Origin: Chiloscyllium plagiosum
Taxonomy: Eukaryota
Direction: 5' to 3'
Assembly: GCF_004010195.1 (NCBI RefSeq)
Contig: NC_057718.1
Location: 48,460,499-48,480,498 of the forward strand
DNA length: 20,000 nucleotides
Part shown: piece after piece, positions 2,038 to 20,000 of the stretch
Numbering within the stretch: the stretch's first letter is position 1
Layout: every line of letters starts with the position of its first letter
Notes under the pieces: generated by a model
The model's database searches: none
What the model was told of the DNA's origin: nothing
What the model saw: only the letters and a program-made list of their open reading frames with translations
Made by a program: the position numbers and the translations under genes

Positions 2038-2151
2038 CATCATATGCTTCCAAAATCAGTCCTGAAGAAGGGTTACACCCAAAACGTAGACTTCTCCACC
2101 TCCTGATGCCCTGGCTTGCTGTGTTCTTCCAGCCTCCTGCTTGTCTGCCAT
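2038..2151 (+). mobile_element. Short Penelope-like-derived insertion (family A) with hammerhead motif
   Basis: Similar to 4337-4420 (CTGAnGAAGGG..CCC..AAAC..TCCTGATGC..TGCTGTG..TTCCAG). Candidate 8-bp TSD ATTTATCA at 2030-2037 and 2152-2159. Confidence 0.7.
2058..2092 (+). ncRNA. Minimal type I hammerhead ribozyme, G12>A (probably inactive)
   Basis: AGTC|CTGAAGA|A|GGGT-TAC-ACCC|AAAA|CG|TA|GACT: stem I AGTC/GACT, stem II 4 bp, ACGT palindrome at stem III. GAAA has become AAAA, consistent with CpG decay. Confidence 0.75.
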
Positions 2152-3080
2152 ATTTATCAACCAATTAAATCTTAGGACATTAAACTGGTTTCATCACTAA
2201 AGTATCGAGATTAAATTTAACACCTATTTTGCAATACATCTTATTCTTAGAACATGAGCTACCAGGGTTATTCAGAGTAGGCATGCTCAGAATGAGTTTT
2301 CTGATTGGTGGCACCTGAAGGGTTACGGAATGAAATTTAATTCATAATTTAATTCACATTTCCATGTGATGTGTTTACCATATATTTAGAATGGTTTTGG
2401 AAGGCAATTCTTTATCACTTTAACTTGTGAAGTCTTGGACCTTTCTTGAATAAGTGACCTGCAGAGTGGCATGTTAATGTTTACTTTGTTTAAAAGGATA
2501 CCTATTTATGGACTCTAACTTTTAATGCAACCTTTCAGAATTAACAAGGCAATCATTTTAGGTGGCTGTGATTGTCCTTTCCACTTGCAGTCAAAAATAA
2601 TCTTTTCTATATAGTGCAGCACTATTCCTTTCTGGTACTACTTGTCATTTTGTGTGATAATGTAATTGTATCCTGGAAAAAACATTTAAAAAAAAAAATT
2701 CATTTAGTAGTGCTAACTTTTGCCTAATGCTACCAAATAGTATAAATACTTTAGTGTTGCATAACTCTGGAATGTATTAACCTGCAATCAACAGCACAGC
2801 TACAGTATTGCATTGAGTATGGAAAGTTTATGAATTAATTGCTGTGGTTGGTTTTGAAGCCAGAAACACACAGTACAAGCATAGATTAGTGGTTCTAAGC
2901 TTTAAAATATAACCAAAAATGGGATTGTACTTTAATTTTATAATGGATGTTGGTATGAATTGCCTTCACTGTTTTCATTCATGTAGCCTTGATTAATTTT
3001 GGTTCATTCTAAATATGGTCTTTAAATTTTATGTTACTCTTTGGTGTGAAAGAGTTCTAAAGACTGCTTGTGTCAATTAC

Positions 3081-3098
3081 TTTGCTTTGTTCTTTCAG
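3081..3098 (+). promoter_or_regulatory. Polypyrimidine tract and 3' splice acceptor of the mARC last exon
   Basis: TTTGCTTTGTTCTTTCAG immediately precedes the coding match; phase-2 junction (one base, then TAC at 3100). Confidence 0.9.
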
Positions 3099-3228
3099 AT
3101 ACCGTCAGTGTGACCCATCTGAAAAACACATTTACAAATCTGTCCCCGTGATTGGTTCACACTATGGGATTGAAAAACGTGGAGTGATTCGTGTAGGGGA
3201 CCCTGTGTATTTGATTGTTGATCAGTAG
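3099..3228 (+). CDS. MTARC1: Last coding exon of mitochondrial amidoxime reducing component (mARC, MOSC domain C-terminus); MTARC1 vs MTARC2 not resolvable
   Basis: Reads YRQCDPSEKHIYKSVPVIGSHYGIEKRGVIRVGDPVYLIVDQ* (TAG 3226-3228), matching the vertebrate mARC C-terminus as recalled (YRxCDPSE...G.I.VGDPVY). Canonical acceptor upstream; earlier exons not seen in the window. Confidence 0.93.
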
Positions 3229-4011
3229 GAATGAACGATAACAGAAAAAGCGCTGTTTCTCTTTTAAAAGGATGAAAAATTTAATGTCTTTACTTGTGGA
3301 AACACTTATCATTGTGCCATTAATTGCTTGTAAAGGTCATCAGTTGAGGATTTAAGTGAAGCTAGAGTTTTTCCTGCTGAACGTTGCTTTAATTGAATAA
3401 TTATTTTCTTAAAAGATGAGCTCGTGAATTATTGGCCTATTTCTACAATTTTTTATTGGTATGAAACATTTAATCATTGTTGAAAAGTACTGAATATTAT
3501 TGCTAGGCATTTGCTTTAAAAACCTACAAGGAGTTAGTCACTTCCATACCTTTAAATTTTATTCCATCCTTACTTCTGAGCTTCCTCCCCCACACCCTCC
3601 TCCAAATATGCAGTTACTTTTAACGAAAAGCTGCGAGAATTGTCTTTGATGATCTAGCAAGCCCACCCCATGCAAAGAGCTGAAGTAACCGATCCAAGTA
3701 GTGACAAGTTCACTGAAATACTTAAAGTCAGTGACTTTGTGTTTGTCAATATTAATTCTGCTCCACATCAATCTTTTCAAATTCAACAGGAACATTTGCT
3801 AATCCTTAACTGCACACAACAGTGTTAAATGTGTGTCTATATCCAGAACAGTTGAAAATGGGTGGGAAGAGGGATGATATTTCCAGCATATTAAAAGAAG
3901 TGAAAATAGCTGATAATGTGGTACCCAATTGTGAAAGGGTAAAATCAGCCATAAAAGTAGGAAGTTCACCAATGTATACTTCATTTATTAGTATTGCTAT
4001 ACTTTCTCTGA

Positions 4012-4017
4012 AATAAA
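4012..4017 (+). terminator. Candidate proximal polyadenylation signal for mARC
   Basis: AATAAA about 0.8 kb after the stop codon; use not demonstrated. Confidence 0.4.
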
Positions 4018-4251
4018 AAGTATTTCTGTGAACCACTTCAGTTGGTTAAAATGCTGAGCTGCCATCTGCCTCAAAATTCAAGTATGTGCAGATTTTAGGT
4101 TTCATGTTTCTCCCACTCTTCCTCTTTTAGACAGTGACATGCACTCACAGTTTTTTTTAAAACTTGGTTTTTATTCTTAAAGTAGTAAATTCAGAATAAC
4201 ATAAAGAAGCCCATCTAACTTGCAAGAAGGCTAAGCTTCTATTGAATTTTG

Positions 4252-4425
4252 GGTGAAAGCGAGGACTGCAGATGCTGGAGATCAGAGACAAGATTAGCGT
4301 GGTGCTGGAAAAGCACAGCAAACTTCATCAGGATTCTTGATGAAGGGCTTATGCCCGAAACATCGATTTTCCTGCTCCTCTGATGCTGCCTGACCTGCTG
4401 TGCTTTTCCAGTACCATACTAATCT
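4252..4425. mobile_element. Palindromic Penelope-like-derived insertion (family A) with 16-bp TSD
   Basis: AGATTAGCGTGGTGCTGGAAAAGCACAGCA is the inverted copy of TGCTGTGCTTTTCCAGTACCATACTAATCT; centre CTTCATCAGG-ATTC-TTGATGAAG. TSD CTTCTA(T/A)TGAATTTTG at 4236-4251 and 4426-4441. Confidence 0.85.
4333..4368 (+). ncRNA. Minimal hammerhead ribozyme, C3>U and stem III decayed
   Basis: ATTC|TTGATGA|A|GGGC-TTAT-GCCC|GAAA|CA|TC|GATT. Confidence 0.7.
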
Positions 4426-5031
4426 CTTCTAATGAATTTTGCAGAGTGTGAATATCAATTGCTGCAGGTGGTTTACATAGATTCTTTGTCTGAAGGCTCT
4501 TTCCCTGATGAATATAACTTTTTCTACTGTGCCAATCAGTGGTTCCAGTAGTCCAATTAATTTTGGTAATCTATTCCTCTCTGGAGTCAGTGCTGAATTT
4601 ACTTGCTGATCGTGCTATGGATTAGATAAATAACTGGTGAGCAATGGTTTAATGAAATAAGGTGATATTGTGATAATGTGACTGCATAACTTAGCTTTTA
4701 GTCTTCTGTCTATTTAGATAATGATGTCTATTTTAAAATCTTTATAGAAAAATGGAAACTTTAATTACTTCCATAAAAATTATTTGGATTTTTTAATGTG
4801 CTTGCATTCGTATCTTGAATATAGATCACCTTTTGTAAGTCAGTGTCATTTATTTATATAGCGTTCCTGTGAAGCACCTTACCATGTTTTATTTGTTAAG
4901 AAGTGCTATAGAAATACAATCTGCTGTTGTTACACTGCATTTTTGTTGAGGGGCTGAATGTAAGACCGTATCAATGCATGTTATGAATTGTAATTATATC
5001 TTATTTTTCTTTATAGACAAGCGATAACCAA

Positions 5032-5037
5032 AATAAA
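5032..5037 (+). terminator. Candidate distal polyadenylation signal (another at 5231-5236)
   Basis: AATAAA hexamers in AT-rich, UTR-like sequence; chance occurrence is possible. Confidence 0.3.
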
Positions 5038-5699
5038 TCTGGGAAATATACAAATCAACATTTGTCGTAATTCCTTCTCTGTAGGCAATGTAGTTTTAGT
5101 ACTTGTTTAGTATCAGGCTCACCTAGTGTTATGAACCAAAAACTTCTAGAAAGGTATTTGAATTTCCAGTAGCTGACTGAAAGGATCTTTCAACAATATT
5201 TTTAAGATTTATTTTACTGTAATTAGTAAAAATAAAAGCAACATTGTTTAAAAACTATTCAGTAGTAGAATTCAACGCCTAGTCAAAAATCCAGAAAAGA
5301 ACCTGTATCAAAATTTTAAAACTACCAAAATTCCACATCATGGATATTAACTCTACCTTAAGTAGAGATGTCATTTTCCAGGAACCTGTCAATAGCTATG
5401 CTTGGCTCCCAATTGTTCTCATTGTGTTGACTTTTCCAGCCAGATAACTTCTAGTCCCCAAGCTGACTTTAATGGTAAGAGTTAGCCTGGAGATTTCTTG
5501 TTGAGGTGGAGCGAGGGAAATCTTACAGTCTTATTTAAATATTTGTCAACTCAATCTCTTCAGTCCAATATCGAGTTCCACCTGAATTCTGTATGATGGA
5601 TGATAGAGGCTGGCTACTTCCTGCTATCTGCTGTTAGATTCTCAGACTAGCTTAAGAAAAATCTAGTGACCTAATATTACAATGTCCTACTGTAGATTA

Positions 5700-6712
5700 T
5701 TCCCTAAATAAAACTGGAGTCATTGAGAATCCAGGACTATCTCTGCTGGATAGTCATGCCAAGCATAAAAGGAAGATTATTATTAGAGGCCAGTCTTCCG
5801 GGTCATGTCGTAGCCCAAATATCTTCATCTGCTTTGTCATAAGGTCAGAATTGAGATTTGTTGATGGTCACACAGTGTTCAGCACCATTCCTGAATCCTC
5901 AGATACTGAAGCAGTCTGTGTCCAAATTCAGCAAGACTTGGACTTCACTCCATCTTGAACTGATAAGGGGCAAGTAACATTTTCACCACACAAGTGCCAG
6001 ATAATGACTATTTCCAAACACAGAATATTGCCTCACTGTTTTCAATGAAATTACTATCACTGAATCCCTCACTATCAACATCCTAGGGTTATCATTTAGC
6101 AGAAACCAAGCTGGACTAACCATACAAAAACTATGGCAATGACTAGATTAATAGGCTAGTTACCAAAGAAGTCTAGCCATCATCTGATTCCTAGGTCAGG
6201 AGTGTGATGGAATACTCTCTACTGCATGGATGAGTGCAGCTCCAATAAAACTAAATTAAGCTCAATATCATCCAAGACAAAGTTGCCTGCTTAATTGACA
6301 CCACATCTGACACCTTTGACATATGCTCCGTTCATCACTGATGCATAGTACTAGCAGTGTGTACCGTCTATAAAATGCACTGCAACAATTCATTAAAACT
6401 CCTTTAGACAGCACTGTTAAAACCTATGACCTCTTATCGAGAAGGACAAGGCAGCTGATATACGTCAATACTGTCATCTGCAAATTCCCCTTCATCCACA
6501 TACTGTCCTGATTTGGACCTATACTGACATTTCTTCACCTTGGTCAAAATCATGAAACGTACCTCCCTAAGAGCACTATGGCTGTGTCTGACCACAGGGA
6601 CCTCAGTGGTTCAAGAAGGCAACTTAACACCACATCCTTGAGAACAGTTAGGGCAGAGGATAAATGCTGGCTGAGCGAGCAACACCCACATCCTGTAAAG
6701 GAATAAGCAAAA
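5700..6712 (+). mobile_element. Decayed CR1/L2-group LINE 3' part (RT to tail)
   Basis: Degenerate GPNIFICF, FVDGHTVF (FADD-like), IQQDLD, VTFSPHKCQ and VRSVMEYS motifs; tail TAAATGCTGG...CCCACATCC. Inverted homolog at 19175-19706. Confidence 0.75.
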
Positions 6713-7344
6713 GCTAATCTCTCGGTAACCAATTGCCGTGTGGGTGAATTGACATCGGTTCCAGAAGCTGTTGCTGAACACAGACCCCTGAGATCTGTGC
6801 AGCAGCAGGAAAAATTAGAACATAGACATCGAGCCAATGCACCCAATAGACCTAACCCTTTCTGAAGCTGACTTAATACCCCAATATTACCCCACCCACC
6901 CCCAACTGACCTAGCCTGCCCCAGACCTGACACCTTTCCAATCTGACCGAACACTGCCCTCTCATCCAACATCAAACCAATATCCCCAACTCTAAGCATT
7001 CATCCATTTATATCATGATATTTGAAGGGTCTGTTTCCATGCTGTATTAGTCTATAAACATGAATCAAATAGGCATTGCAACCGGTAGAAAATAAACCCC
7101 TTACTCTAATCTGTTTTGAATTTGTTTAGACAATCTCAAATATAACATTTACAGATCTTGCCATTCTGAACATCCTCTGCCCCATCAACTTGAGAGTCCT
7201 GAAGATGAGCAGTCTACTCAGTCTTAATGAATGCCCTTATTATTGTCCACAAGTCTTATCATGTATCTTCTTTCCCATAAATCAAATTGGGCTTTACCAT
7301 CTCTGTAGCAAACAAACCACTGGACTGTGATGTGAAATACAATG

Positions 7345-7835
7345 AACATTTTTGGTCCCCTTATTTAAGGAAAGATAGACTAGCATTGGAGGCATTCTAG
7401 AGAAAGTTCAGTATATTGGCACCAGGTCTGGAGGAGCTGACTTTGAGGAGAGGTTGAGTTGGTTGGAGTACCTATTGGAGTTTTGAAGAGTGAAAGGCAA
7501 GTTTATTGAAACATATAAGATTCTTGCAGGACTTCGCAGGATAGGTGCTTAGAGGTTGGTTCTCTTTGTGGGACAGTCTAGGACCAGAGGATATAATGTC
7601 AATATGAGGGGTTGCCTATTAAGGTAGATGAGGAATATCTCTCTGAGTGTAGTGAATCTGTAGCATTCTTTGCAGAAGAGGGCTGAGGAGGCTGGATTTT
7701 AAAAAGTCTATCTCCACCTTGAGTATACTTAATCAATAAGGGAATGGAAGATTATGAGGAAAAGGCAGAAAAGTGGAGTTAAATTTTGAATGGCACACCA
7801 GATTGGTGGGCTGAATGGCCTACTTCTGCTCTTAA
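7345..7835 (+). mobile_element. CR1 LINE 3' fragment
   Basis: FWSPYLRKDRLALE, FEERL and FIETYKIL motifs; tail GGGCTGAATGGCCTACTTCTGCTC. Confidence 0.85.
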
Positions 7836-9059
7836 GACCACATTTCAGTAGTAACCGCTTGTAACCTATCCCTTTTTTTCTACTTCTCTTGCACCTGCCT
7901 TCTTTCCGTGGAAACTATTTGTATATTCCCAGCACCACCCTACCAGGCTCAGGAGGTAGAAGTCCTGACAGACATGCACATTTATTCTTGGACCTCTCCT
8001 TACCTTGGCCTCAGCACTCACCCACTCCTATCACACCACTAGCCAAACCATGCTCACTACAAAGATTTCTCAGCCACTCATTCACTTCCTTCCTTTTCTT
8101 TCCCTCTTACGTACCCTGCTAGTTGCTCATCCAATCCCAGGCTGTTTCTCTCCCATGTTCACTGCTGATAGGCTCATAGTGAATCTAGCCAGAAGACCTG
8201 GATTCATGTCCCGTCTGCAGCTGAGATTTGTCATTAAGTTGAATAGGTTTATTACAAATATCTGTAACGACTGCTGAAGAAAGAAAACTGGTTTCCTTTC
8301 GGTTAAATAAGCGCCTGATCACTTCTCTCTGCTTTTTGTTCTTAGCCCCAAGCTGTTCACTAACCTGCGAGCCAATCACATGGTTGTTGGCACACAAAAG
8401 ACTTTTGTCATTCATAACTGCTCAATAGTCCATAGACCAATTAACTTCTTGAAACCAACCGAGCACCATCTGAAAGTAAACCCTCCATGGTTCCTGGTTG
8501 TTGGACCTTTCAGTTACTGCTTGTTTAAGCAGATGTATAAATCATACTTGCCTTGAGTGTCAGATTATGTATTTCTCAAAGCATGCAGCAATCCTTGCAA
8601 AATAATAGTATTAAAGCAATTCTTCCTCATTTCAGTCCACAATTTAAAAAAAACACAACAAAAATAAAATACGTGGTCTCTACACTATTGATATTTTTTA
8701 TCTCTCCAATATCAGAACTGACCAATTTTTCTGGTCTAATTTCTCCATTAGCCCTGACATTTTAAAAGATCTGAAACCAGATCCCTATAATCGTCCTCTT
8801 CAGGAAAGCACAGATCTTAATAGATGGTCTTTTCCTATAACTCAGCTCTTTATTCTTGTTCTAGATTGAATCATGTTTCATAATACTCTAGATAGTGTCT
8901 CAGAAAGGTAAGATGCAATTTCCAAATTATTTTCTTTGACTTATTGATCTTAATGCTAACTGTTATGTAACTTTTTTTTGTTGTCCTGATGCCAGTCGGC
9001 ACATTGAAGTGATGTCAACAATGCCTTAGCCAGCAAATTCCCAGTTTATCTTCATAAAT

Positions 9060-9410
9060 TATGGCTCAGAAGAGTCTGTTTAGCACTTCCTGTGTGGCAT
9101 TTCCTGTCTCTGAATGAACAATATTCCTTTTTCTCCATTTTCTCCCTGTACTCCTGAAGGTTCTCCCTTTTGAGATTAATCTAATTCCTTCTTGAATGCC
9201 TTGATTGAACCTAGCTCCACAACACTGTCAGGCAGAGCACTCTAGATCTTATCTACTCATTGATTGCAAATGTTTCCCCTCATGTGTCCATCACTTCTTT
9301 TTGCCAATTGCCTTAAATCTGTGCCTTATTGTTAATCGTATCGCCAGTGCAAAATTATTAACTAGCTACTCTGTGGTCACCCCTCAAAAATTTGAGTACT
9401 TCTGTAATTT
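9060..9410 (-). mobile_element. Old CR1 LINE 3' fragment
   Basis: Minus strand resembles the CR1 end of ORF2 (GCACAGATTTAAGGCAATTGGCAAAA; GCTCTGCCTGACAGTGTTGTGGAG; GGCATTCAAGAAGGAATTAGAT). Ends approximate. Confidence 0.65.
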
Positions 9411-9432
9411 AAAAATTTAATTGCTATAGAAA

Positions 9433-9547
9433 TGGGCCCTTGTTGCATAAGTGGTACTGCCCCTACATCTGAGCCAGGAGGCCTGAGTTCATGTCCCACC
9501 TGATCCAGTGTAGTAATATCTCTGAACAGCTTGAACAGAAAATATCT
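9433..9547 (+). mobile_element. tRNA-derived SINE head, decayed
   Basis: A-box-like TTGCATAAGTGG and B-box-like GAGTTCATGTCC at tRNA-like spacing; no intact cloverleaf seen. Confidence 0.55.
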
Positions 9548-9814
9548 TAATTATTGTAGCAGGAGGCTAAGCTAGCCAGTGATTCATTCAAGGTTCTAAA
9601 TTAGAGATCAGCTTTTTCAAACTGCACAGTCAGTAAGGGGCACATGCTCAGGAGATTGTGTCTGTGTGACAAGTTGGCTGAGTGAGTAGCATATTAGGTT
9701 CGCATGGGGATTCGGTGTATGTGGAAAAGAAGTGTTTTAGATCAGGCTTATTTCAACAATGAAGTAAGTAAAGGAAAATACAGGAAACAAATGGAAGTGA
9801 AGCAAAGCTAAGGC

Positions 9815-10570
9815 ATGGCAGGACAGCTCGGTTGTGTGGAATGTATGTTCTGCAAACCTGGTTTTAGAGCTGAAGTGGCAGCTGGAATCTCTGTGACACA
9901 TGCACAAGTTTTAGAGATATGTGGATTGTACTCTCACAGAGATTATCACACTGCAGACTATAAACATGGAGATAAAGAGGGAACAGCTGTCTGTCAGGCT
10001 GTCTCAGAGCACCAGGCAGGTAATGCAGGAGTCCCCTAAGAACTCCTTTGCAAATCAGTTTTCTGATTTGGATACTGGTGAGCATTTTGTAGTTACAGCC
10101 AAATTCACAGCACCATCGGCAGCTGAGCCATATAAGAGGGGAAAGAAATGAAGAGTAGTGATAGGGGATTAGTAAAGGGAACAGGCAGTCATTTCAGAGG
10201 CTGCAGAGGTCACTTCAGGATGGTATGTTGCCTCTCTGGTACCAGGTTCAAGAATATCATACAGCAGCCTGTAAGCCATTACTCTGGGGAGGAACAAGTG
10301 AATAGCAAAATGTTGTGGTCAGTATTGATACCTGTGACTTAGAAATGAAGGGGGATGAGATATTGAAAGTGGACATGGAAGTAGGAGAATTGAACAATTC
10401 AACAAGTGAATAGAGAACTGTTCTTGGAGAGAGGGTATCAGATTTGTAACACAATGCAGACCATTTCTGGGACAGGTGGGACTTGCACAAGATTGCAACC
10501 TTGCAGGTCCTGGACTAATATCCTAGCCTGGATATTTATTTGTGCTTTTCAGTTTAAAATAGATTGGACA
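9815..10570 (+). mobile_element. CR1 LINE ORF1 remnant (Cys-rich N-terminus and SGNH esterase-like domain)
   Basis: MAGQLGCVECMFC, NSFANQFSDL, VVIGD-like, LVKGT and RMVCCLSGTRFKNI match CR1 ORF1 motifs (VIGDSxVRG, VCCLPGARV); heavily frameshifted. Confidence 0.8.
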
Positions 10571-10909
10571 GGGACCTGAGAAGGACTCAACTTCAAGGGC
10601 AGCAGAACTGCTAAAAGGAAATAGATACAAAAATAGATTACTGGCAAGTATAAAATATGATTTTTAAAAAATGCATTTCTGAATTTTGAGAATTTTCAAT
10701 GAAAGCTTTTCATTCCAACAGTTCTCTCTTGAGCTCAGTCGTATTCTCAACCTACCTTGCCAATTCACCTTGACGAGAACCTGTCAAGTGACCTGCAAAT
10801 GGGTTGATGATTTGTGTGCACATACTGATTTAATTGCCATTAAAATGTCACGACAGAGTGACCAAGATTGGGAACTGAATATCCAAGGATAGGCATTTGG
10901 GAGGGCTAG

Positions 10910-11032
10910 GAGAAAGTGAGGACTGCAGATGCTGGAAATCAGAGTCAAGAGTGTGGCACTGGAAAAGCACAGCAGGTCAGGCAGCATCCGAGGAACAGGA
11001 GAGTTGACGTTTCGGGCAAGAGCTCTTCATCA
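10910..11032 (-). mobile_element. Short Penelope-like-derived insertion (family A) with 16-bp TSD
   Basis: Same terminus as 4252 (GAAAG(C/T)GAGGACTGCAGATGCTGGA). TSD CATTT(G/A)GGAGGGCTAG at 10894-10909 and 11033-11048. Confidence 0.88.
11002..11032 (-). ncRNA. Truncated hammerhead ribozyme (lacks C3 and the 5' strand of stem I)
   Basis: Minus strand: TGATGA|A|GAGC-TCTT-GCCC|GAAA|CG|TC|AACT. Confidence 0.7.
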
Positions 11033-11224
11033 CATTTAGGAGGGCTAGACAAAAAGGGAGAAGGAGATACAAAAGAATTCCTAATAAAGGACAGTGTACA
11101 TTGGTATAAAGAACCTTTGATCAAAGAATCAAGATGTAGAATCAGTTTGCACAGAGTTAAGAAACAGCAAGGGCAACAAACACTGGTAGAAATGTTTGTA
11201 AATCACCAGACTCTAGTGAGAGGT

Positions 11225-12110
11225 TTGGGTTGTAGGTTTAGGTTTAATTGTCATGTGTGCTCAAGTAATGGCGTACAAGAATCCAGTGAGAAGTGTACAA
11301 TGTTGCCACACATGGCTCCATCTTAGGTACAAAATCTTGGCTACCAGAAATGGAGAAGTTAAAAAAAAATTTAAAGTTCAGCACTACAGCTTTCTTAGCA
11401 TAAAAGTTGAAAAATAAAGAAATAAAGTTAAAATGTCAAACATTACAGTCCATTCTTGAGCCATTGGCCTAAGCTGGGCTTCCCCAAAGGGTTGGCTGTC
11501 CTGTGCTGGGTATGCTTTCATCTGCGCTGGGCTAAGACCCACCTGGACACACCAGGCTTTGTCACCTCTCACAAGGCTTCAGCCTAGACTAGCATATCAT
11601 CTTTTACCGTGGCTGCCACCATCCATCGCTGCCGCTGCCTCATTGCTGATCACTTTTGCCATCATACTTCGCTGTCACTGCTGATCACTGCTTTGCTGCT
11701 GCCGCCATCTGGGCTTGCACTGGGCTCCAGTTACTGCCATGCTCCATCACTGCGGCTGCCTCTATGGCCCCAGTTTTACGATTGCTCCAGGTCCATGCTG
11801 GGCTCACTGTAGGTCCACACTGAGCTCCCTTGAGGTCTGCGCTGGGTTCCCTCTAGGTCTACGCAGGACTCCCTCGAGTTCACACCGAGCTCCCTCGAGG
11901 TCCAGGCTAGGCTTCGTTTAGGTCCCCACTGAGCTCCCCGAGGTCCAGACTGGGCTCCCTCAAGTCTGCGAGGTCTGCCGTCAATATCATCTGAGCTCAA
12001 GAGGTGAGTAATGAAAATAGAAGATATCAAAGAAAACAAGAAAAGAGAAAAGAAAAGAAAAGCATTTGTAGTGGATGAGCTCTGCCTTGTGAACAATTTC
12101 GAACCCAGCA
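11225..12110 (-). mobile_element. Unclassified, apparently non-coding insertion in the CR1 (possible non-autonomous LINE derivative)
   Basis: Separates CR1 endonuclease from later ORF2 sequence. Minus-strand end CACATGACAATTAAACCTAAACC looks like a short-repeat LINE tail; GC-rich interior with a minisatellite. Confidence 0.45.
11789..11962. repeat. Minisatellite, 8 degenerate units of 21-22 bp, consensus ~AGGTCCACGCTGGGCTCCCTCG
   Basis: Units start at 11789, 11811, 11833, 11855, 11877, 11898, 11920 and 11941. Confidence 0.85.
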
Positions 12111-12458
12111 AAAGAGGATCAACAAACTGACTAACAAAGGAAAAATAGGATAAATATCCAACCTAGTAAGGAACATAACAATGGACTACAAAAGCTTCTT
12201 TAGGTAAGTGAAATGAAAAATATTATCTCAAACAAATTTGGACCCATTACAAGAAGGGCAGCAAACCAGATAGTTACAGGCCAGTTAGGCTGATGTCAGT
12301 GGTTGGGAAAGTATTGGGAAAAGTGCGATAGGAAAGAACTAAACAACATTTAGAAACAATAGTAGTCATTATTTGGAGATGCCAGTGTTGGACTTGGGTG
12401 TACAAAGTTAGAAATCACAAAACACCAGGTTATAGTCCAACAGGTTTAATTGGAAGCA

Positions 12459-12493
12459 CACTAGCTTTCGGAGCGACGCTCCTTCATCAGGTG
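12459..12493 (-). ncRNA. Minimal type I hammerhead ribozyme, intact core
   Basis: Minus strand: CAC|CTGATGA|A|GGAGC-GTC-GCTCC|GAAA|GC|TA|GTG. Confidence 0.88.
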
Positions 12494-12538
12494 ATAGTGG
12501 AGGGCTCGATTCTGTGTTACGATCGAGCCTTCCACTAT

Positions 12539-12573
12539 CACCTGATGAAGGAGCGTCGCTCCGAAAGCTAGTG
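12539..12573 (+). ncRNA. Minimal type I hammerhead ribozyme, intact core; predicted cleavage after A12570 (CUA)
   Basis: CAC|CTGATGA|A|GGAGC-GTC-GCTCC|GAAA|GC|TA|GTG: stem I CAC/GTG, 5-bp stem II, AGCT palindrome at stem III. Confidence 0.9.
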
Positions 12574-13835
12574 TGCTTCCAATTAAACCTGTTGGACTAC
12601 AACCTGTTGTTGTGTGATTTTTAACATTTGGAAAGGCAGTGATTGGTCAGTGATAGTCAGCACTGATTAGAGTGGATCCTATCTGACAAAAATTTAGTTG
12701 AGCTTTTTGAAAAGGTGATGAAATATATCAATGAAGGTAGCGCAGTTAATGTGGTTTACATCGACTTCAGTCAGGCCTTTGATGAGGTCCCACATGGAAA
12801 GCTGGTCCAAAAAGCAAGAGCCCATGGGATTCAAGGCAGGTTGGATCCAAAATTAGCTTGCAAATAGAAAGCAGAGTGATGATGGAGTGTTGTTTTGTAA
12901 TTGGAAGCTGTGACCAGCAGTGTACTACAGGGATTGGTGCATGGACTTTTGCCTTTTATGTACATTAATGACTTGGACGTGAATGTAAAAAGTTTAGTTA
13001 GTAAGTTTGTAGATGACCCATAAATTGGTGGTGTTGTTGATTATGAGGAGGATGATCCAAGGCTACACTTTAATATTGATCAGCTGGGAAATTGAACAAA
13101 GCAATTACAGATAGAAGTTAATCCTGATAAGTTTGATCTGATACATTTTAGGAGATCTAACAAGAGAAAGATATTTACAATGAATGGTAGGTCCTTGGGG
13201 AGTATTGAGGAACAAAGGGGCCTTGATGTACAAATCCATATATCCTTGAAGGTGTCAGCTTAGGTAGAACGGGTGATGAAGAAGGCATAGGAGATGCTTG
13301 CCTTTATTAGCCAGGATGTAGACTATCGGAACAAGTCACAACTTTATGAAGCATTGCTTAGGCAACAGCTGGAATACTGTATGCAGTTCTGGGGGGGTCA
13401 CCACATTATTGGAAGGACATGATTGGAGAGAGTGCAGAGAAGATTCACCAGGATGTTGCCTGGGATGAAAAACTCAGTTATGAGGAGAGACTGGATAGGT
13501 TGGGTTTGTTATCCTTGGAGGAGAAATCGAGCAGGGATCTGATTGAGATATGCAAAATTATGAGAAACATTGACAGGGTACATCATGAGTCTCCCCATGG
13601 CAGACTTGCCGAAGTGCATGAGTTTAAAGTGAGATGTAAGTGGTTTAAAGGAGATATGAAATAATTTTTTTCACCCAGAGAGTATAGAAGTATGATACAT
13701 GCTGCCTGAGAGGGTGGTGGAGGCAAGTACTCTCACAACATTTAAGAAGCATCTGGATGGGCACTAAATGCCAGGGCATAATAGGGTATCGACCAAGTGC
13801 AAATTAATGGGATTACTGTGGTTTAATGTTTGTTA

Positions 13836-14333
13836 TGTTATGACATAGGGTAAACCCACCCCTGGTAATTTAAACCAGCAATACAGAAAAAAATTACCCT
13901 GTGTGGTAATCTGTGAAAATTCAAGAGGTCAAGAACTATCCCAAAAAGCCACTATTTAAAGTACAAAAATTTAAGAATTTTATTCTTTACGTCTATCATA
14001 GAATATTAATCAACAACTATTTACAAATCCTTTCTCTAGCATACCTTTTACTTTCCAATCTGCAATACTGGTCCGATAAAATCCTGATTAAGATTTACTG
14101 AAAAATTCTAATTTCAAAATCAGCCAGTTATCAAATCTTCCCTTTGTAGATTTGCTCTCCCGGTCAGTGTCAATGTTTTTTTCTGCGCAAACATCTTCTC
14201 TAAACGGGTACCTCTCAGAGAGTTCTCACTAGCAGCCTACCTCTGTTGGTCTTTTGGCAGTTCTCCCCCAACTGTTCATTTTTTTTTGGGTTTTATACCC
14301 CAAAGCATCGGAACATTTCATTGGTTTTTAATA
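13836..14333 (-). repeat. 3' LTR, truncated on its internal side
   Basis: Direct repeat of 15913-~16398 (e.g. GGTAATTTAAACCAGCAA, GATTAAGATTTACTGAAAAATTCTAATTTCAAAATCAGCCAG); similarity ends at CATTGGTTTTTAATA. Confidence 0.9.
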
Positions 14334-14334
14334 A

Positions 14335-15731
14335 ACATTACCCACAGAGATGAATTCTTTGCAGAGATCAGGTACTAACTCCATACCCAGCCCGTTCCCA
14401 CTCTCCTGCACTCTCCTGCAGCTCCTCAGCTCTTCTTGGGGTCTCCTTTGCTACCTTCACTCATGCAACTGGCTTAGCTTCTTTTACCACATCTGTTCCC
14501 ACAGTGCCTTTATTTAATGACCAGCACTGTGGTCATTCTGGCAGCGAAAACACCTTTTCTCAGAGCCCATCTGAGACCACTGGCACTGTAATGTTCTGTG
14601 ACCCAGTCCATTACAGTGAAAACACCTGAGGCCGTTCACCTCTTTTTCACCCTCATGGGCTTCTTTAACTTGTGATAAATTCCTATCAGTGTTCTCTACT
14701 CCTTGTTTCGTAGTACAGGATCTCCCCTTCTCCCAACTTCTATCCCTCACAGAATGAAGTTTTGGCTGGAAGCTTATCTTGTGCCCCAACATGTACTCAT
14801 CTGCTAATTCTGCTGCCCTTCTCATTTCCTGAACTTTCTGTTCCTCCACATGAATTCTTACCATCTCTGGAAGTGAGTTTTTAAACTCTTCCAGCAGGAT
14901 GATCACTGTTAGAGCCTCAAAGGTCCTACCTATTTTTAAAGCACGCATCCAGCTATCAAAATGACTGTTTAATTCTTTCGAACTCAGCATAAGTCTGTTC
15001 TGGTTTTTTCTTTGTGTTTCTGAACTGCTGTTTATATGCTTCTGGTACCAATTCATAAGCCCTTAAAATAGCCTGTTTGATCTCTTCATAATCTCTTGAC
15101 CCCTCATCTGACAGGGTGGAAAATACCTCATTAGCTCTGTCTACCAGTTTAGTCTGAACTAGCGTTACCCATAAATCCTCGAATCACTCCATCTGCCTAG
15201 CCAATATTTCAAATGAAATAAAGAAGGCTTCAACACCTTTCTCATCAAAATGTGTATATCACTACCTTCTCTTTTAACTTCCATCCTGTTGACTTGACTT
15301 TGCTATGTCACAAATTCTCAAGTTCAAATTCTCTCTCTTTGTCTCTCCCTTTCTTCTCTGTCTCTTTGCTCAGCTAAGTACCTTCTTTCTCTCTCTTTCC
15401 TCTATCTCTCTTTTTCCTGTCTCTCTCTTCTCTCTCTCTTCCTCTTTCTCTCTCCCTCTCTCCTTCCTCTCTCTGTTTATCTTCTAACTCCATTTTCCTC
15501 AACTGTAATTTAAGTTTTTACATCTCTACTACAAGTGTGTTTCTCTGACACACCTAAGCGTTTGAGTAACTCTTTTACAATTTCAGCTTTATGTCTGCCC
15601 CTGGTTAAACCTAACTCTAATTTCTTTGCAAATTCTAAAAGTATGGCCTTTTTCTTTCCTTCTAAGCTTTCTTGGAAAATTTGAGAATCATCTTCAAATC
15701 CCAGAACCTCTTTAGCAGTTTTAAGAGCCAT
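14335..15731 (-). pseudogene. Gypsy gag remnant: coiled coil, capsid/SCAN-like domain, CCHC zinc knuckle
   Basis: MALKTAKEVLG.. (ATG 15731); E/R/K-rich tract; FDEKGVEAFFISFE..DYEEIKQAILRAYELVPEAYKQQFR; IILLEEFKNSLPEMVRIHVEEQK..AAELADEY; CFHCNGLGHRTLQC; ends at PDLCKEFISVGNV. Stops and frameshifts present. Confidence 0.9.
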
Positions 15732-15891
15732 TTCTCTCACTTTTAATTTAATTAACCACAAGTCACTGAAATTAAACACATTGTCTCACTTACGTTTTAT
15801 TTACAGATCTAGGACACTAACCTGCAAGTGTTTAAAGCTGCTGTGATTCCTCATACCCCAAATCTATTCAAATCTGTCTAAACCAGTTCAA

Positions 15892-15909
15892 ATCCTGGAC
15901 GATCCCCAA
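15892..15909 (-). promoter_or_regulatory. Primer binding site, tRNA-Pro type
   Basis: Minus strand TTGGGGATCGTCCAGGAT vs canonical TGGGGGCTCGTCCGGGAT (15/18), 3 nt from the LTR end. Confidence 0.85.
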
Positions 15910-15912
15910 ATC

Positions 15913-16627
15913 TATTATGATACAGGTAACCCCCCCGACCTCGGTAATTTAAACCAGCAACAAAGAAAAAATTTCACAGTAATCTGTAGACGCCAAGAAC
16001 TATCCCAAAAGTATAAAAGTTAAAGTACAAAAAATTTAAGAACTTTCTGCTTTACGTCTAACATAGAATATTAACCAACAACTATTACCAATTACTTTCT
16101 CTAACTTATCTTTTACTTTCCCTTCTGCAATATTGGTCCGATAAAATCCCTGATTAAGATTTACTGAAAAATTCTAATTTCAAAATCAGCCAGCTATCGA
16201 ATCTTCGCTTTGTAGATTTGTTCTCCCAGTCAGTGTCAATGTTTTTTTCCGTGCAACCACCTTCTCTAGATGGGTACCTCTCAGAGAGTTCTCACTAACG
16301 GCCTACCTCTGTTGGTCTTTTGGCAGTTCTCCCCCAACTGTTCAATTCTTTTTGGTTTTATACCCTAAAGCATTGGATCATTACATTGGTTTTTAATATT
16401 GTCAAAATACTAAATTCAAACTGAATTGGAGTTGGGTATCTTGGGGTATAATTTAAACTGATTGGCCAAATTCGAATTTGCTTTTGTATCCAGCCAACCC
16501 AGCTAATCTAGCTGTTCGACCAAATGTTACATTGTTACTTTGTTCAGAACACTTGGTGCCGTAACAGGTAGTTCTGCTAGCTTTTCAACTCTTTTAAAGG
16601 CTCAATAGCCCTTACACCTTCATAACA
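15913..16627 (-). repeat. 5' LTR, complete (~715 bp)
   Basis: T(A)TTATGA...TCATAACA termini, adjacent to the PBS. Confidence 0.9.
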
Positions 16628-16662
16628 GCTGGGCTGTCTCTATGTTGAATGACTCTGTAACT
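16628..16662 (+). mobile_element. Probable CR1 tail displaced by the Gypsy insertion
   Basis: CTGTCTCTATGTTGAATGACTCTGTAACT resembles the CR1 terminal CTGTTTCCATGCTGTATGACTCT motif. Confidence 0.55.
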
Positions 16663-16697
16663 TCTTCCCCAAATTTGCTGATTAAATCTCTTTTGAA

Positions 16698-16778
16698 TTG
16701 CCTCCAATGCCAGTATCCCCTTTCTAAAATTTAGGGACCATAACTGTACTCAGTACTCCAGGTGCAGCTTCACTAGAT
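16698..16778 (-). mobile_element. Short CR1 fragment
   Basis: Minus strand LVKLHLEY*VQLWS..RKGILALEA. Confidence 0.7.
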
Positions 16779-16884
16779 GAGCTTCATTCCAGAGTATTCA
16801 ACCTTTCAAAATTCTATAGATTCTGGATAGATTTCAGCTGACTGAAAAGTAGTAAATATAACTTCACTCTTTAAGTAGAGAGAG

Positions 16885-17071
16885 AAAGTCAGAAGTCACA
16901 CCACACCAGGTTATTTGAAATCACAAGCTCCTTCGTCAAGATTCCCTCCACTTTACCTGAGGAAGGAGCAGTGCTCTGAAAGCTTGTGATTTCAAATAAA
17001 TCTGTTGGACTATCACCTGGTGTCATGAGAATTCTGATTTTGTCCACCCCAGTCCAACCCAGAACCTCCAA
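16885..17071. mobile_element. Palindromic Penelope-like-derived insertion (family B, diverged), left arm internally deleted
   Basis: Homologous to 12376-12625 in opposite orientation (CTGTTGGACTA..CCTGGTGT..TTTGTCCACCCCAGTCCAAC..CTCCA). Left arm TTATTTGAAATCACAAGCT is the inverse of AGCTTGTGATTTCAAATAA. Confidence 0.85.
16954..16988 (+). ncRNA. Minimal hammerhead ribozyme, core intact, wobble pairs in stems I and II
   Basis: TAC|CTGAGGA|A|GGAGC-AGT-GCTCT|GAAA|GC|TT|GTG; predicted cleavage triplet CUU. Confidence 0.8.
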
Positions 17072-17774
17072 GAGGAGAAGGAGGGAGAATGGATAACTAC
17101 ATACCTGTTAGGTTAATGCCAAGTGGAGGGAAATATTAGCATTTATTATAATGGATGTCATAACTTGATACTGTATATACTTGTGTATATGTCAAAATTT
17201 GAAGATGGTTTTTTAAATCTGAAATTAGTAGGTCAGCTTATACATGAGGTATTGTTTTCAAGGGGATGAATATTTATCCACAAAATACATAAAATGGGAA
17301 ATTTACCTTCCCGGCAGCTCCCTGGTCCCTGGTTCTGGAACATTCCCTGTAACATGTTTGGGCATGGTAAACCGCAGGTAACCGAATCCAACTTCATGGA
17401 TACAGCAGTCACCCCATACTGTCGTACCATTATAGTAATTCTGAAAACCTGGAGTGAAGCGTGACAGCTGGCAGACTGGAAGACCCAGAATGGAGTGGTA
17501 CAGCCAACAGACTGGAAAGCTGGAGCGGAGTGCAAGGAGCAGGTACCGTGACTCATAAATGTTGATCTGTAACTGTGAAGAACTAGGGTTAACTTATACA
17601 CGAAATATATGGAAAATGTAAGATACTTTGGCCAAAGTAAGGGATCACTTATACTTAAGATTTACCTATATACAAATAAATACAGTATTTAAAGATGATT
17701 GATAGAATTGGGTAGAGTTGCGAAAAGAAAATTATTTTTGACAAATGTTTTAAAATATTTTGAGTATATTATTT

Positions 17775-18655
17775 GTAGCATTGATCAGCCAAATTTGCTG
17801 ATGGCACCAAACTGGGTGAGAATGTAAGAAAAGTTATGACGATTTGTACAGGCAATATGAATGGGCTAGAACATGATAAGTGGAACATAATGTGAATATG
17901 AGTGAAATTACTCATCTTACACGGAAAAAAGAAGCAGATTACTCCTTTCATTGGTGAAAAAATGTGTATCTAAATGGACCTGAATGTCCTTGATCATGAG
18001 TCATTAATAGCATCCAATGCAGCAAGCAACTAGATAGGCAAATGACACATTGGCCTTCAACACAAGGGTATTTGACTACTGGACTAAGGGTGACTCGCTG
18101 GAGATATACAGACACTTGGAATGTTATGTAGTTTTAGTCTGACAGCCTAAGGTGTGATACAATTGCCATAGAGAGAGTGCAATGGCAGTTCACCAGTTTA
18201 ATCCCCGAACTGTAGGATTGTCTAATGAGGAAAATTTGAGGAGACTGGGTCTGTACTCCTTAGACTTTTGAAGAATGAGGTTTGACCTAATTGAAAATTA
18301 CAATATTGTTACAGGGCATGTCAAGCTGGTTGTAGATATAACATACCCCACAGCTTTTGAGTCTAAAAACAAGGGATATAGTCTTGGGATAAGGAATGGG
18401 TCATTTAATACTGATATGAGGAGAAATGTCATCATTCACTTTAGTGAAATTTTGGAATCCTCTACCCCAGAAAAACATGGAACTCAATCATTGAGCATGC
18501 TCAAATTGATAAATTTCTGGAGACAGATGATACCAAGGGATGTCAGGATGGTGCAGGGAAGTAGCATTCAGGTTGATGATCAGCCAGGATCGAATTTAAT
18601 GGCACAGAAGGCTCAATGGACTGAATAACTTAATCCTGTTTTAATGTCTCTATGC
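17775..18655 (+). mobile_element. Decayed CR1 LINE 3' fragment
   Basis: AKFADGTKLG, AIERVQWQFT and MRFDLIENYNI motifs, with a CR1-type tail near 18610-18655. Confidence 0.85.
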
Positions 18656-19174: not shown

Positions 19175-19706
19175 ATGTATTTTTTCACAGGTTTTGGCTG
19201 TCACTGGCTAATCCAACATTTATTGACCCTCTCTATTGTACTCCAGAAGGTGGTGGTGTGCCATCTTCTTGAACCATTATAGTCCATCTGTTGTGATGAT
19301 TTCCAAAATTTGGATCCAACTACAGTAAAGGAACGTCAATATTTTTTCAAGTCAGGATGATGTATGCTTGAAGGAGACTCTTTAGCTGGTGATGCTCTAG
19401 TGCATAGGCTGTCCCATCCCTGTCATTCCAGTTGATAGAAGTTGACTTGGTAAGCTGCTGTTTAATGAGTGAATTATGCCAGTGCATCTTGGAGTTGCTC
19501 CACACTGCTGCTGCTGAAGGGATGCAGTGGCATTGAGCTTCTTGTGTGTTTTTTGCAGCTCCAGTCATCCAGTCAAGAGGAGAGTACTCCATCACCTTCT
19601 TGATATATGCCATGTAGATGGAAGACAGTCACTGGGGTGTAAGGCGGTGAATTACATGATGCAGAATCCCCAGCCTCTAAACTGTTCTGGTAGTCACAAT
19701 ATTTAT
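19175..19706 (-). mobile_element. Decayed CR1/L2-group LINE 3' part, same family as 5700-6712
   Basis: Minus strand KVMEYSPLDWMTGA, KMHWHNS and tail GGTTCAAGAAGATGGCACACCACCACCTTC..AATAAATGTTGG. Confidence 0.75.
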
Positions 19707-19710
19707 TATC

Positions 19711-20000
19711 CGCCTATTACCCGCCCTCGACCTCTTCATCTCCAACTGCCGCCGGGACATTAACAGCCTCAACCTGTCTACCCCCTCCCCCACTCCAACC
19801 TCTTACCCTCACAACGTGCAGCCCTCCAATCCCTCTGCTCCAAGCCAGCAGATAAAAGGGGCGCAGTGGTAGTCTGGCTCACTGACCTCTACACCGCTGA
19901 AGCCAAACGCCAACTCGAGGACACCTCTTCCTACTGCCCCCTCGGCCATGTCCCCACCCCCACCAACCAAACCATCATCTCCCAGGCCATACAGAACCTC
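19711..20000 (+). mobile_element. Penelope-like element reverse transcriptase N-terminal fragment, runs off the window
   Basis: LLPALDLFISNCRRDINSLNLSTP / LPHSNLLPSQRAALQSLCSKPADKRGAVVVWLTDLYTAEAKRQLEDTSSYCPL..PT matches the PLE pattern SNL..R.AL..L...KPADKGGAVVV....Y..EA.RQL.D...Y..L..DPT. One frameshift near 19785. Confidence 0.9.

Follow-up and report, generated by a model that had tools for sequence, protein, structure and literature searches.

The five hammerhead-bearing repeats in the 20,000-nucleotide stretch of Chiloscyllium plagiosum DNA analysed here (the window) are very probably the cut-off tail ends of two Penelope-type elements (PLEs), families A and B, that carry the described minimal hammerhead. 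They are ordinary elements, very common across the genome. An initial annotation had placed five insertions in the window, and all five were located (Table 1). A systematic sample of 0.94 Mb (940,621 bases from 98 stretches, one consisting entirely of N and contributing none) contained 168 insertions of family A and 35 of family B. At this density 4.3 insertions would be expected per 20 kb, so that the five in the window are average for the genome (P = 0.43 for five or more). The insertions make up 3% of the sampled DNA, and extrapolation gives about 7.5 × 10^5 of them. The annotation was right in calling the repeats very abundant PLE termini, as both these counts and the ORF-linked long copies described below indicate.

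Table 1. Features of the window, with arms, hammerhead motifs and target site duplications (TSDs)
Positions	Strand	Feature	Basis and extent	Arms	Hammerhead motif	TSD
2038..2151	+	Family A (divergent subfamily) PLE 3′ stub, old, without tail	HMM match 2055-2133		2062-2087, decayed; stem I AGTC/GACT; GAAA to AAAA (G12 lost)	weak, 8 bp (2030-2037/2152-2159)
3097..5054	+	Last exon of MOSC-domain gene	coding to about 3228, AATAAA 5032, poly(A) 5054
4252..4425	both	Family A head-to-head insertion	HMM, palindrome, TSD	tailed on - (4256-4320, internal deletion), tail-less on + (4332-4420)	4337-4363 on the tail-less + arm, decayed; core TTGATGA (C3 changed)	16 bp, one mismatch (4236-4251/4426-4441)
10910..11032	-	Family A single tailed stub	HMM match, TSD		copy ends at U4 of the core; C3 absent	16 bp, one mismatch (10894-10909/11033-11048)
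12357..12622	both	Family B head-to-head insertion	HMM, palindrome, descriptor, TSD	tailed on - (12371-12512), tail-less on + (12509-12622)	two, intact: 12490-12463 on -, 12542-12569 on +	12 bp, one mismatch (12345-12356/12623-12634)
16882..17070	both	Family B head-to-head insertion, older	HMM, palindrome, descriptor	tailed on + (16935-17070); short, deleted on - (16882-16934)	16957-16984 on +	none of at least 8 bp found
19707..20000	+	5′-truncated family A PLE, degenerate N-terminal RT region (DKG motif)	87% identical to other copies

The head-to-head palindromes at 4252, 12357 and 16885 had been missed in the initial annotation. The PLE at 19707 runs beyond the window edge and terminates in an A-type hammerhead terminus, after which the 12-mer at 19695-19706 recurs. 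The stub at 2038 sits inside the last intron of the MOSC-domain gene. We take this host gene to be mARC-like; its MOSC domain match (E=0.046) is under the Pfam cut-off. RNA contigs cover 3097-4284 and 4387-5047 and poly(A) reads end the host mRNA at 5054, which locates the 4252 insertion in its 3′ UTR.

A strict minimal-hammerhead descriptor matched 56 times in the sampled bases and not at all in any of 10 shuffles, so that the motif greatly exceeds chance. In the window it is passed by three motifs (12542+, 12490- and 16957+), all of family B, whereas each of the three family A copies fails it individually. The hammerhead cores reported for both families are thus intact in B and broken in the A copies. 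The extra A after CUGANGA was seen in 5 of 5 window copies, as annotated, and an extra nucleotide separates position 9 from 10.1 in all 56 descriptor matches (A in 50, U in 6), whose stem III reads ACGT in 35, AGCT in 5 and other variants in 16. Several stems deviate from the annotation. In family A, GGGT/ACCC is found in stem II at 2062, but stem III at 4337 is ACAT, with its palindrome changed, and stem II at 10910 is GAGC/GCCC, with an A-C mismatch. In family B, GGAGC/GCTCC becomes GGAGC/GCTCT at 16957 and ends in G-U. The stem changes between the families are real. In stem I, the third pair is U-U at 4337 and the 5′ strand is missing at 10910. The bare pattern CTGANGA..GAAA occurs 4 times in the window against 2.77 expected, which is not above chance. 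Rfam found no hammerhead family in the window, and the palindromes account for its two matches there, MIR845_1 and MIR537, neither of which reaches the gathering score. For the intact copies, folding prediction of the monomer yielded stem II but no stable hammerhead structure beyond it.

The assignment to PLEs is based on long copies. The fixed 3′ end of the short copies is common to ORF-linked long copies, and upstream the sequence continues into a GIY-YIG frame in A copies L036, L037, L039 and L051 and in B copies L011 and L015. In L163 the order is A terminus, ORF, RT with YIDD, linker and GIY-YIG, so that an A terminus also lies upstream of the ORF; the Pfam score for GIY-YIG is 23.6 bits (cut-off 22.6), and the RVT_1 match is weak (E=0.0065) and below cut-off. 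An A terminus follows downstream, on the same strand, in each of the 20 RT N-terminus copies that were fetched. The B terminus or its upstream edge accompanies 11 of 15 B endonuclease matches, the other 4 holding long runs of N, and L182 connects RT, endonuclease and B UTR. A single ORF with RT and C-terminal GIY-YIG with CCHH was seen in A (L163/L164), and for B an RT with YIDD and an endonuclease frame were read in L182 and also in L174/L179; all copies read, of either family, are broken. Pfam gave no match for family B, where a 28-aa piece was searched. Across 128 aa the proteins of A and B show 32% identity, and both have a CX2-5CxxC linker between RT and endonuclease, in the form C-x4-C-x2-C (L162 and L168 in A, L174 and L179 in B). 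It is on this linker, which Nematis PLEs likewise have (PMC8557442), that a putative Neptune-type placement of A and B would rest. Because none of the fetched copies held an intact ORF (the long open frames were runs of N in 20 of 20), the case for present activity is confined to a near-identical young subfamily with 0-3 differences in 83-157 nt. The suggestion that the repeats are non-autonomous derivatives forming families of their own found no support in the 0.94-Mb sample: each of the six commonest A variants includes long copies, 5 of the 6 have at least one that is ORF-linked, and the centres of the palindromes vary between copies.

Short copies occur singly or head to head. With the window pairs included, just one of the two arms is tailed in 47 of 51 pairs of family A and in all 14 of family B. 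Close pairs are flanked by TSDs of 11-18 bp in 30 of 44 cases in A and 9 of 11 in B, compared to 4 of 300 random places. Nearly all junctions are distinct in geometry, with 43 kinds among 44 sampled A pairs and 11 among 11 B pairs. Both arms belong to one subfamily, since discordance at diagnostic sites in A is 12.7% versus 48% for random pairing. An origin of the two arms from different source elements was considered because 6 B pairs differed at one site among best-match loci; it was rejected on the unbiased sample, where discordance (12.7% in A, 16.5% in B) is close to background (9-11%) and well under the values for random pairing (47-48%). Single copies had a TSD near the HMM ends in 12 of 118 A matches and 0 of 22 B matches. 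Because these were so few, many single 5′ ends are defined by alignment to long copies (47 in A, 57 in B), in which divergent subfamilies can mimic an end.

The 5′ ends are clustered in front of the hammerhead. In family A, 57 of 101 arms reaching position -1 terminate at -10 to -1 relative to C3, with 41% in the 5 nt nearest the core, compared to 3-7% per 5 nt at +10 to +59. In family B, the corresponding count is 12 of 25 arms. This stop may well be where the copied RNA starts. Poly(A) single-cell RNA reads on the A terminus and ORF start of L163 numbered 661 in one run, on both strands and with no pile of starts or ends, and zero in a second run. Loose read ends at -4/-5 are confounded by other subfamilies and carry no evidence on start site or cleavage. 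A literature search that lay outside Repbase, Dfam and most subscription journals turned up no description of these shark-type families and none of 5′ ends stopping at the hammerhead; one point that we did not meet in print is that, among arms extending to the hammerhead's front edge, about half end within 10 nt.

Tentatively, we suggest that transcription of the PLE starts at the hammerhead's front edge, that the stubs are run-off cDNAs, and that twin priming produces the palindromes with one tail. By analogy with the anole PLE (PMC11167929), target DNA would be cut by the element's protein, and cDNA synthesis would begin within the RNA at two sites separated by 30-40 nt, one giving a tail and the other not. 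If the RNA starts at that front edge, the RT would run off after 90-130 nt and leave a stub. If both DNA ends prime, one per start site, the far ends of the two cDNAs would be joined by microhomology or filler to give a head-to-head palindrome. The sequence TCATTC at the family A front edge is presumably initiator-like. It is also possible, though somewhat less likely, that the stop reflects stalling or snap-back of the RT at the hammerhead on a longer RNA, caused by stem I complementarity or by a protein bound there, and that the palindromes are fold-backs of one cDNA. Self-priming has been proposed for PLE palindromes (PMC3846280), several centres join both stem I strands or overlap by 2-16 nt, and those of L114, L126, L149 and L082 resemble fold-backs. 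Moreover, the D. virilis start lies 46 bp upstream of an intron (PMC2377424), whose 3′ end is in helix I (PMC4209133), which places that start site away from the hammerhead edge. On the other hand, 7 of 12 single A copies with TSDs begin at model columns 35-44, the front edge, and many centres contain filler instead of overlap. In addition, in 23 of 40 pairs of family A the tail-less arm is the one that extends further 5′, a result that a simple fold-back of one cDNA cannot yield.

The sharpness of the boundary at the hammerhead front edge, together with the shortness of most copies (in A 41 of 218 arms, in B 9 of 48, extend to the upstream edge of the model), might also be expected of a non-autonomous SINE- or retrozyme-like family, in which hammerhead-start RNAs of 90-130 nt are transcribed from the stubs and mobilised by the PLE protein; a 2026 preprint treats animal retrozymes as non-autonomous PLE derivatives. 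This seems improbable here, as the 5′ ends spread over about 15 nt, centres are unique, and the common variants are found in long copies of the 0.94-Mb sample too. Tandem arrays of hammerhead units were not found in the window, and close same-strand neighbours number 9 among 222 A matches and 0 among 51 B matches. Hammerhead cleavage itself is a most unlikely origin of the 5′ ends, given that both families have their main stop about 30 nt upstream of the cleavage site. A modest surplus of family A ends just past that site, at +28 to +32 (18 of about 164, about twice background), would be in its favour, but it coincides with stem I microhomology and is absent in family B (n=44). Furthermore, uncleaved RNA is the main in vitro substrate of the anole PLE (PMC11167929).

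Selection on RNA structure, as proposed in the annotation, is supported between lineages but not within families. Families A and B and a third one, C, all keep core and pairing, each with letters of its own. Within families, stem pairs were not prominent by MI-APC, with best ranks of 56 of 3655 in A and 532 of 3828 in B. Pair counts from a MAFFT alignment of the families were excluded, B being one column out of register and C misaligned. The hammerheads of dispersed copies decay roughly like their flanks, at 6.6% in the core versus 6.0% downstream in B and at 4.8% versus 7.4% in A, where the somewhat better-kept core may reflect subfamily drift or some selection. We infer that the hammerhead would be selected only in source elements, with dimers cleaved through the palindromic stem III, and that inserted stubs would decay.

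The annotation had allowed that published descriptions would take away novelty, and this is the case, as minimal hammerheads in PLE termini, together with the additional nucleotide and a stem III that is palindromic, were already described in PMC4209133. There, Cervera and de la Pena (2014) reported such hammerheads (min-HHR) in the pLTRs of metazoan PLEs, without naming sharks in the parts read. Compared with these, stem II of A and B has only 4-5 bp. Extrapolation gives about 2 × 10^5 descriptor-intact motifs here, against the about 4,000 of coelacanth and 9,000 of Xenopus given there, numbers that are only roughly comparable because the descriptors differ. Other traits already on record for PLEs are the pairing of copies head to head, the tail of 30-40 nt on one side and the target duplications. 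Neptune-type PLEs share with A and B the RT, the CX2-5CxxC linker and the C-terminal GIY-YIG with CCHH, as well as strong 5′ truncation, an adjacent inverted 5′-truncated copy, TSDs and a 30-40-bp tail at one end (Craig et al. 2021, PMC8557442; Arkhipova et al. 2013, PMC3846280). Unlike in those elements, most A and B insertions consist of the last 90-130 nt only, with a clustered truncation point. The Anolis Poseidon element PAc (Frangieh et al. 2024, PMC11167929) has a hammerhead in its pLTR and, like A and B, a pair of 3′ ends separated by about 30-40 nt; the one-tail palindromes would be compatible with both strands being cut and extended. PAc belongs to the Penelope/Poseidon clade and has an ORF from stem II, whereas the core ATG of A and B meets a stop codon within 20 codons. 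Animal non-LTR retrozymes, which occur in a chondrichthyan too, carry type I hammerheads related to PLE pLTRs (bioRxiv 10.64898/2026.07.22.740005); they are tandem head-to-tail units, at least 2 with hammerhead, whereas A and B copies are single or head to head.

The large insertion numbers give statistical power on how PLEs build inverted ends and on the role of the hammerhead. From the clustering of 5′ ends in two families whose flanks are unrelated, an RNA start at -6 to -3 from C3 is predicted. If the run-off reading is true, several hundred thousand stubs would be an in vivo record of a PLE insertion intermediate, and the template end would not be defined by hammerhead cleavage. Hammerhead motifs in genomes of this cartilaginous-fish type, including the one in a host 3′ UTR, are by default decaying transposon debris.

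The five short insertions of families A and B named in the initial annotation are present in the window. Three of them (at 4252, 12357 and 16885) are head-to-head palindromes of two inverted copies, or arms, and target-site duplications (TSDs) were found at four of the five, one of these being weak. The claim that all five carry hammerheads held for family B, whose motifs pass our strict minimal-hammerhead descriptor (the only three window motifs to do so), but not for the three family A copies, whose cores are damaged. The hammerhead at 2062 has lost G12, that at 4337 has lost C3 and the stem III palindrome, and truncation of the copy at 10910 removed C3 and half of stem I. An Rfam search of the window returned no matching hammerhead model.

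Features in the window and in loci fetched from the rest of the genome (L-numbers)
Feature	Position	Remarks
Last exon and 3′ UTR of MOSC-domain gene (presumably mARC-like)	3097-5054	RNA contigs, poly(A) reads
Family A palindrome	4252-4425	internal deletion in one arm, apparently at short microhomology, removes most of its hammerhead
Family B palindrome	16882-17070	as for 4252-4425
5′-truncated family A PLE, N-terminal RT region	19707-20000	last 294 bases of window, continues past its edge; bounded by 12-bp duplication (19695-19706, second copy past window edge)
LTR-type element	13836-16628	two ~480-bp direct repeats (13855-14333, 15934-16398), 2065 bp apart; degenerate coding-like interior, minus strand
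Degenerate LINE-like fragments (presumably CR1/L2-type)	12000-13800, 236-814, 17700-18600	one split by the 12357 insertion
Tandem repeat	11785-11961	22 bp x 8 copies
Family A palindrome with target duplication	L023:727-915	at end of family B endonuclease frame
Family C motifs	L111:6944-6989, L123:1216-1261, L139:2048-2147, L158:3345-3390, L073:516-561	descriptor

Abundance was assessed in 98 10-kb stretches at round positions on large contigs (940,621 non-N bases; one stretch all N). This sample is systematic, not random, and genome-wide figures are extrapolations to the 3.56-Gb genome. The strict descriptor found 56 motifs in the sampled bases, whereas 10 shuffles yielded none, which shows the hammerhead class to be real. 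Six of the 56 belong to a third family, C, which is absent from the window and has an extra U, a 6-bp stem II and a stem I of CUCA/UGAG or CCA/UGG; one head-to-head pair of this family was seen, in L139. Profile HMMs of the two termini matched 218 A and 48 B arms, or 168 and 35 insertions once head-to-head pairs were merged, covering 2.4% and 0.55% of the sample. With 4.3 insertions expected per 20 kb, the window is average in insertion number (P=0.43 for five or more). For the whole genome, extrapolation gives about 6x10^5 insertions of A and 1.3x10^5 of B, with about 2x10^5 motifs that pass the descriptor, in agreement with the great abundance that had been supposed.

The copies share a common 3′ end and vary in upstream extent, and long copies of both families reach a degenerate GIY-YIG frame. 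At one family A locus (L163) the order is terminus, ORF, reverse transcriptase (RT), Cys linker, GIY-YIG. An A terminus lies downstream on the same strand in all 20 fetched RT copies, which were picked for long open frames that turned out to be N runs. The B terminus or its upstream edge was found at 11 of 15 B endonuclease loci, and locus L182 joins the B terminus region to RT. These long copies bear out the earlier proposal that the insertions are termini of Penelope-like elements (PLEs). The element at 19707, whose interior is partly N, runs on past the window edge to an A-type terminus, which is followed by the second copy of the 12-mer. A and B are distinct PLEs, whose proteins are 32% identical across a 128-aa stretch of the linker and endonuclease. 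In both, the linker reads C-x4-C-x2-C and two cysteines lie between GIY and YIG, features given as marks of Neptune and Nematis (PMC8557442). No intact ORF was found among the A and B copies read. One A subfamily is nearly invariant in the sample, which suggests its recent activity, and the A palindrome in a B frame indicates that the families nest in each other. The window motifs are the terminal-repeat (pLTR) hammerhead of endonuclease-bearing PLEs, in identity and predicted working. Classification as a retrozyme was rejected on the tandem criterion (preprint 10.64898/2026.07.22.740005).

The 3′ ends form two clusters, with about 30-38 nt between them, and the longer end, or tail, occurs on exactly one arm in 47 of 51 A pairs and in all 14 B pairs. 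A TSD of 11-18 bp was found around 30 of 44 close A pairs and 9 of 11 close B pairs, compared with 4 of 300 random places. An inverted 5′-truncated copy, a one-sided tail and a TSD are published PLE traits (PMC8557442, PMC3846280), and work in vitro showed that RT starts at two internal sites, with the tail as the stretch in between (PMC11167929). Both arms of a pair belong to one subfamily and junction geometries are nearly all distinct between pairs, so the palindrome formed at insertion.

We mapped the 5′ ends of 198 of the 218 A arms (118 singles and 40 one-tail close pairs; 10 pairs excluded) and 44 of the 48 B arms. Among A arms reaching position -1, just 5′ of C3, 57 of 101 stop within -10 to -1; arm loss per 5 nt is 41% beside the core, against 3-7% at +10 to +59 and 0-8% at -16 to -60. 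Likewise, 12 of the 25 B arms that reach -1 stop within -10 to -1, and just one further between -16 and -60. Single 5′ ends mostly have no confirming TSD (present in 12/118 for A and 0/22 for B). Since the upstream sequences differ between A and B, the stop is linked to where the hammerhead lies. The cleavage site was rejected as the stop: it lies 28 nt downstream, with an at most twofold excess of ends in A that coincides with stem I microhomology. A literature search, with Repbase, Dfam and most subscription journals outside its coverage, returned no description of families A and B or of the 5′ stop.

Our reading of stubs and palindromes is that RT would run off at the RNA 5′ end and that priming would occur from both DNA ends. 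A serious rival puts RT stalling and fold-back behind the stop and the palindromes, and it gains from D. virilis, where the transcription start lies further upstream than the hammerhead edge (PMC2377424, PMC4209133); the RNA reads gave no map of the start here. Against fold-back stands the tail-less arm, which extends further 5′ than the tailed one in 23 of 40 A pairs (reverse 7, equal 10) and in 5 of 11 B pairs (reverse 6, equal 0). One folded-back cDNA could not produce such a pair.

The 4252 palindrome lies inside the polyadenylated 3′ UTR of the MOSC-domain gene. RNA contigs from three runs span 3097-4284 and 4387-5047, 16 raw reads carry poly(A) at 5054, and the runs showing the palindrome are labelled as two organisms. 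Given its broken core, cleavage of the mRNA by this copy is unlikely. The LTR-type element is repeated elsewhere in the sample.

The hammerhead features themselves are already described for PLE minimal hammerheads (PMC4209133), and dimer cleavage is cited in a review (PMC6765202). The proposed covariation stands between lineages, where the letters differ and pairing is kept: stem II is GGGC/GCCC, GAGC/GCTC or GGGT/ACCC in A, GGAGC/GCTCC in B and six pairs in C, stem I is AUUC/GAAU, AGUC/GACU, CAC/GUG or CUCA/UGAG, and stem III is ACGU or AGCU. Within a family, however, no pairs stand out by MI-APC. Double changes in A from G-C to A-U at the second stem II pair (8/118 copies) and from C-G to U-A at the fourth (6/122) rank 56 and 148 of 3655 column pairs, under subfamily signals; the third stem I pair is U-U in 57 of 77 A copies, and family B gave no covariation signal. 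Catalytic positions are off the majority about as often as downstream positions (6.6% versus 6.0% in B, 4.8% versus 7.4% in A). Together with the weak covariation within families, this narrows the suggested selection on RNA structure, which would have acted on the source elements; the stubs show hardly any trace of it.
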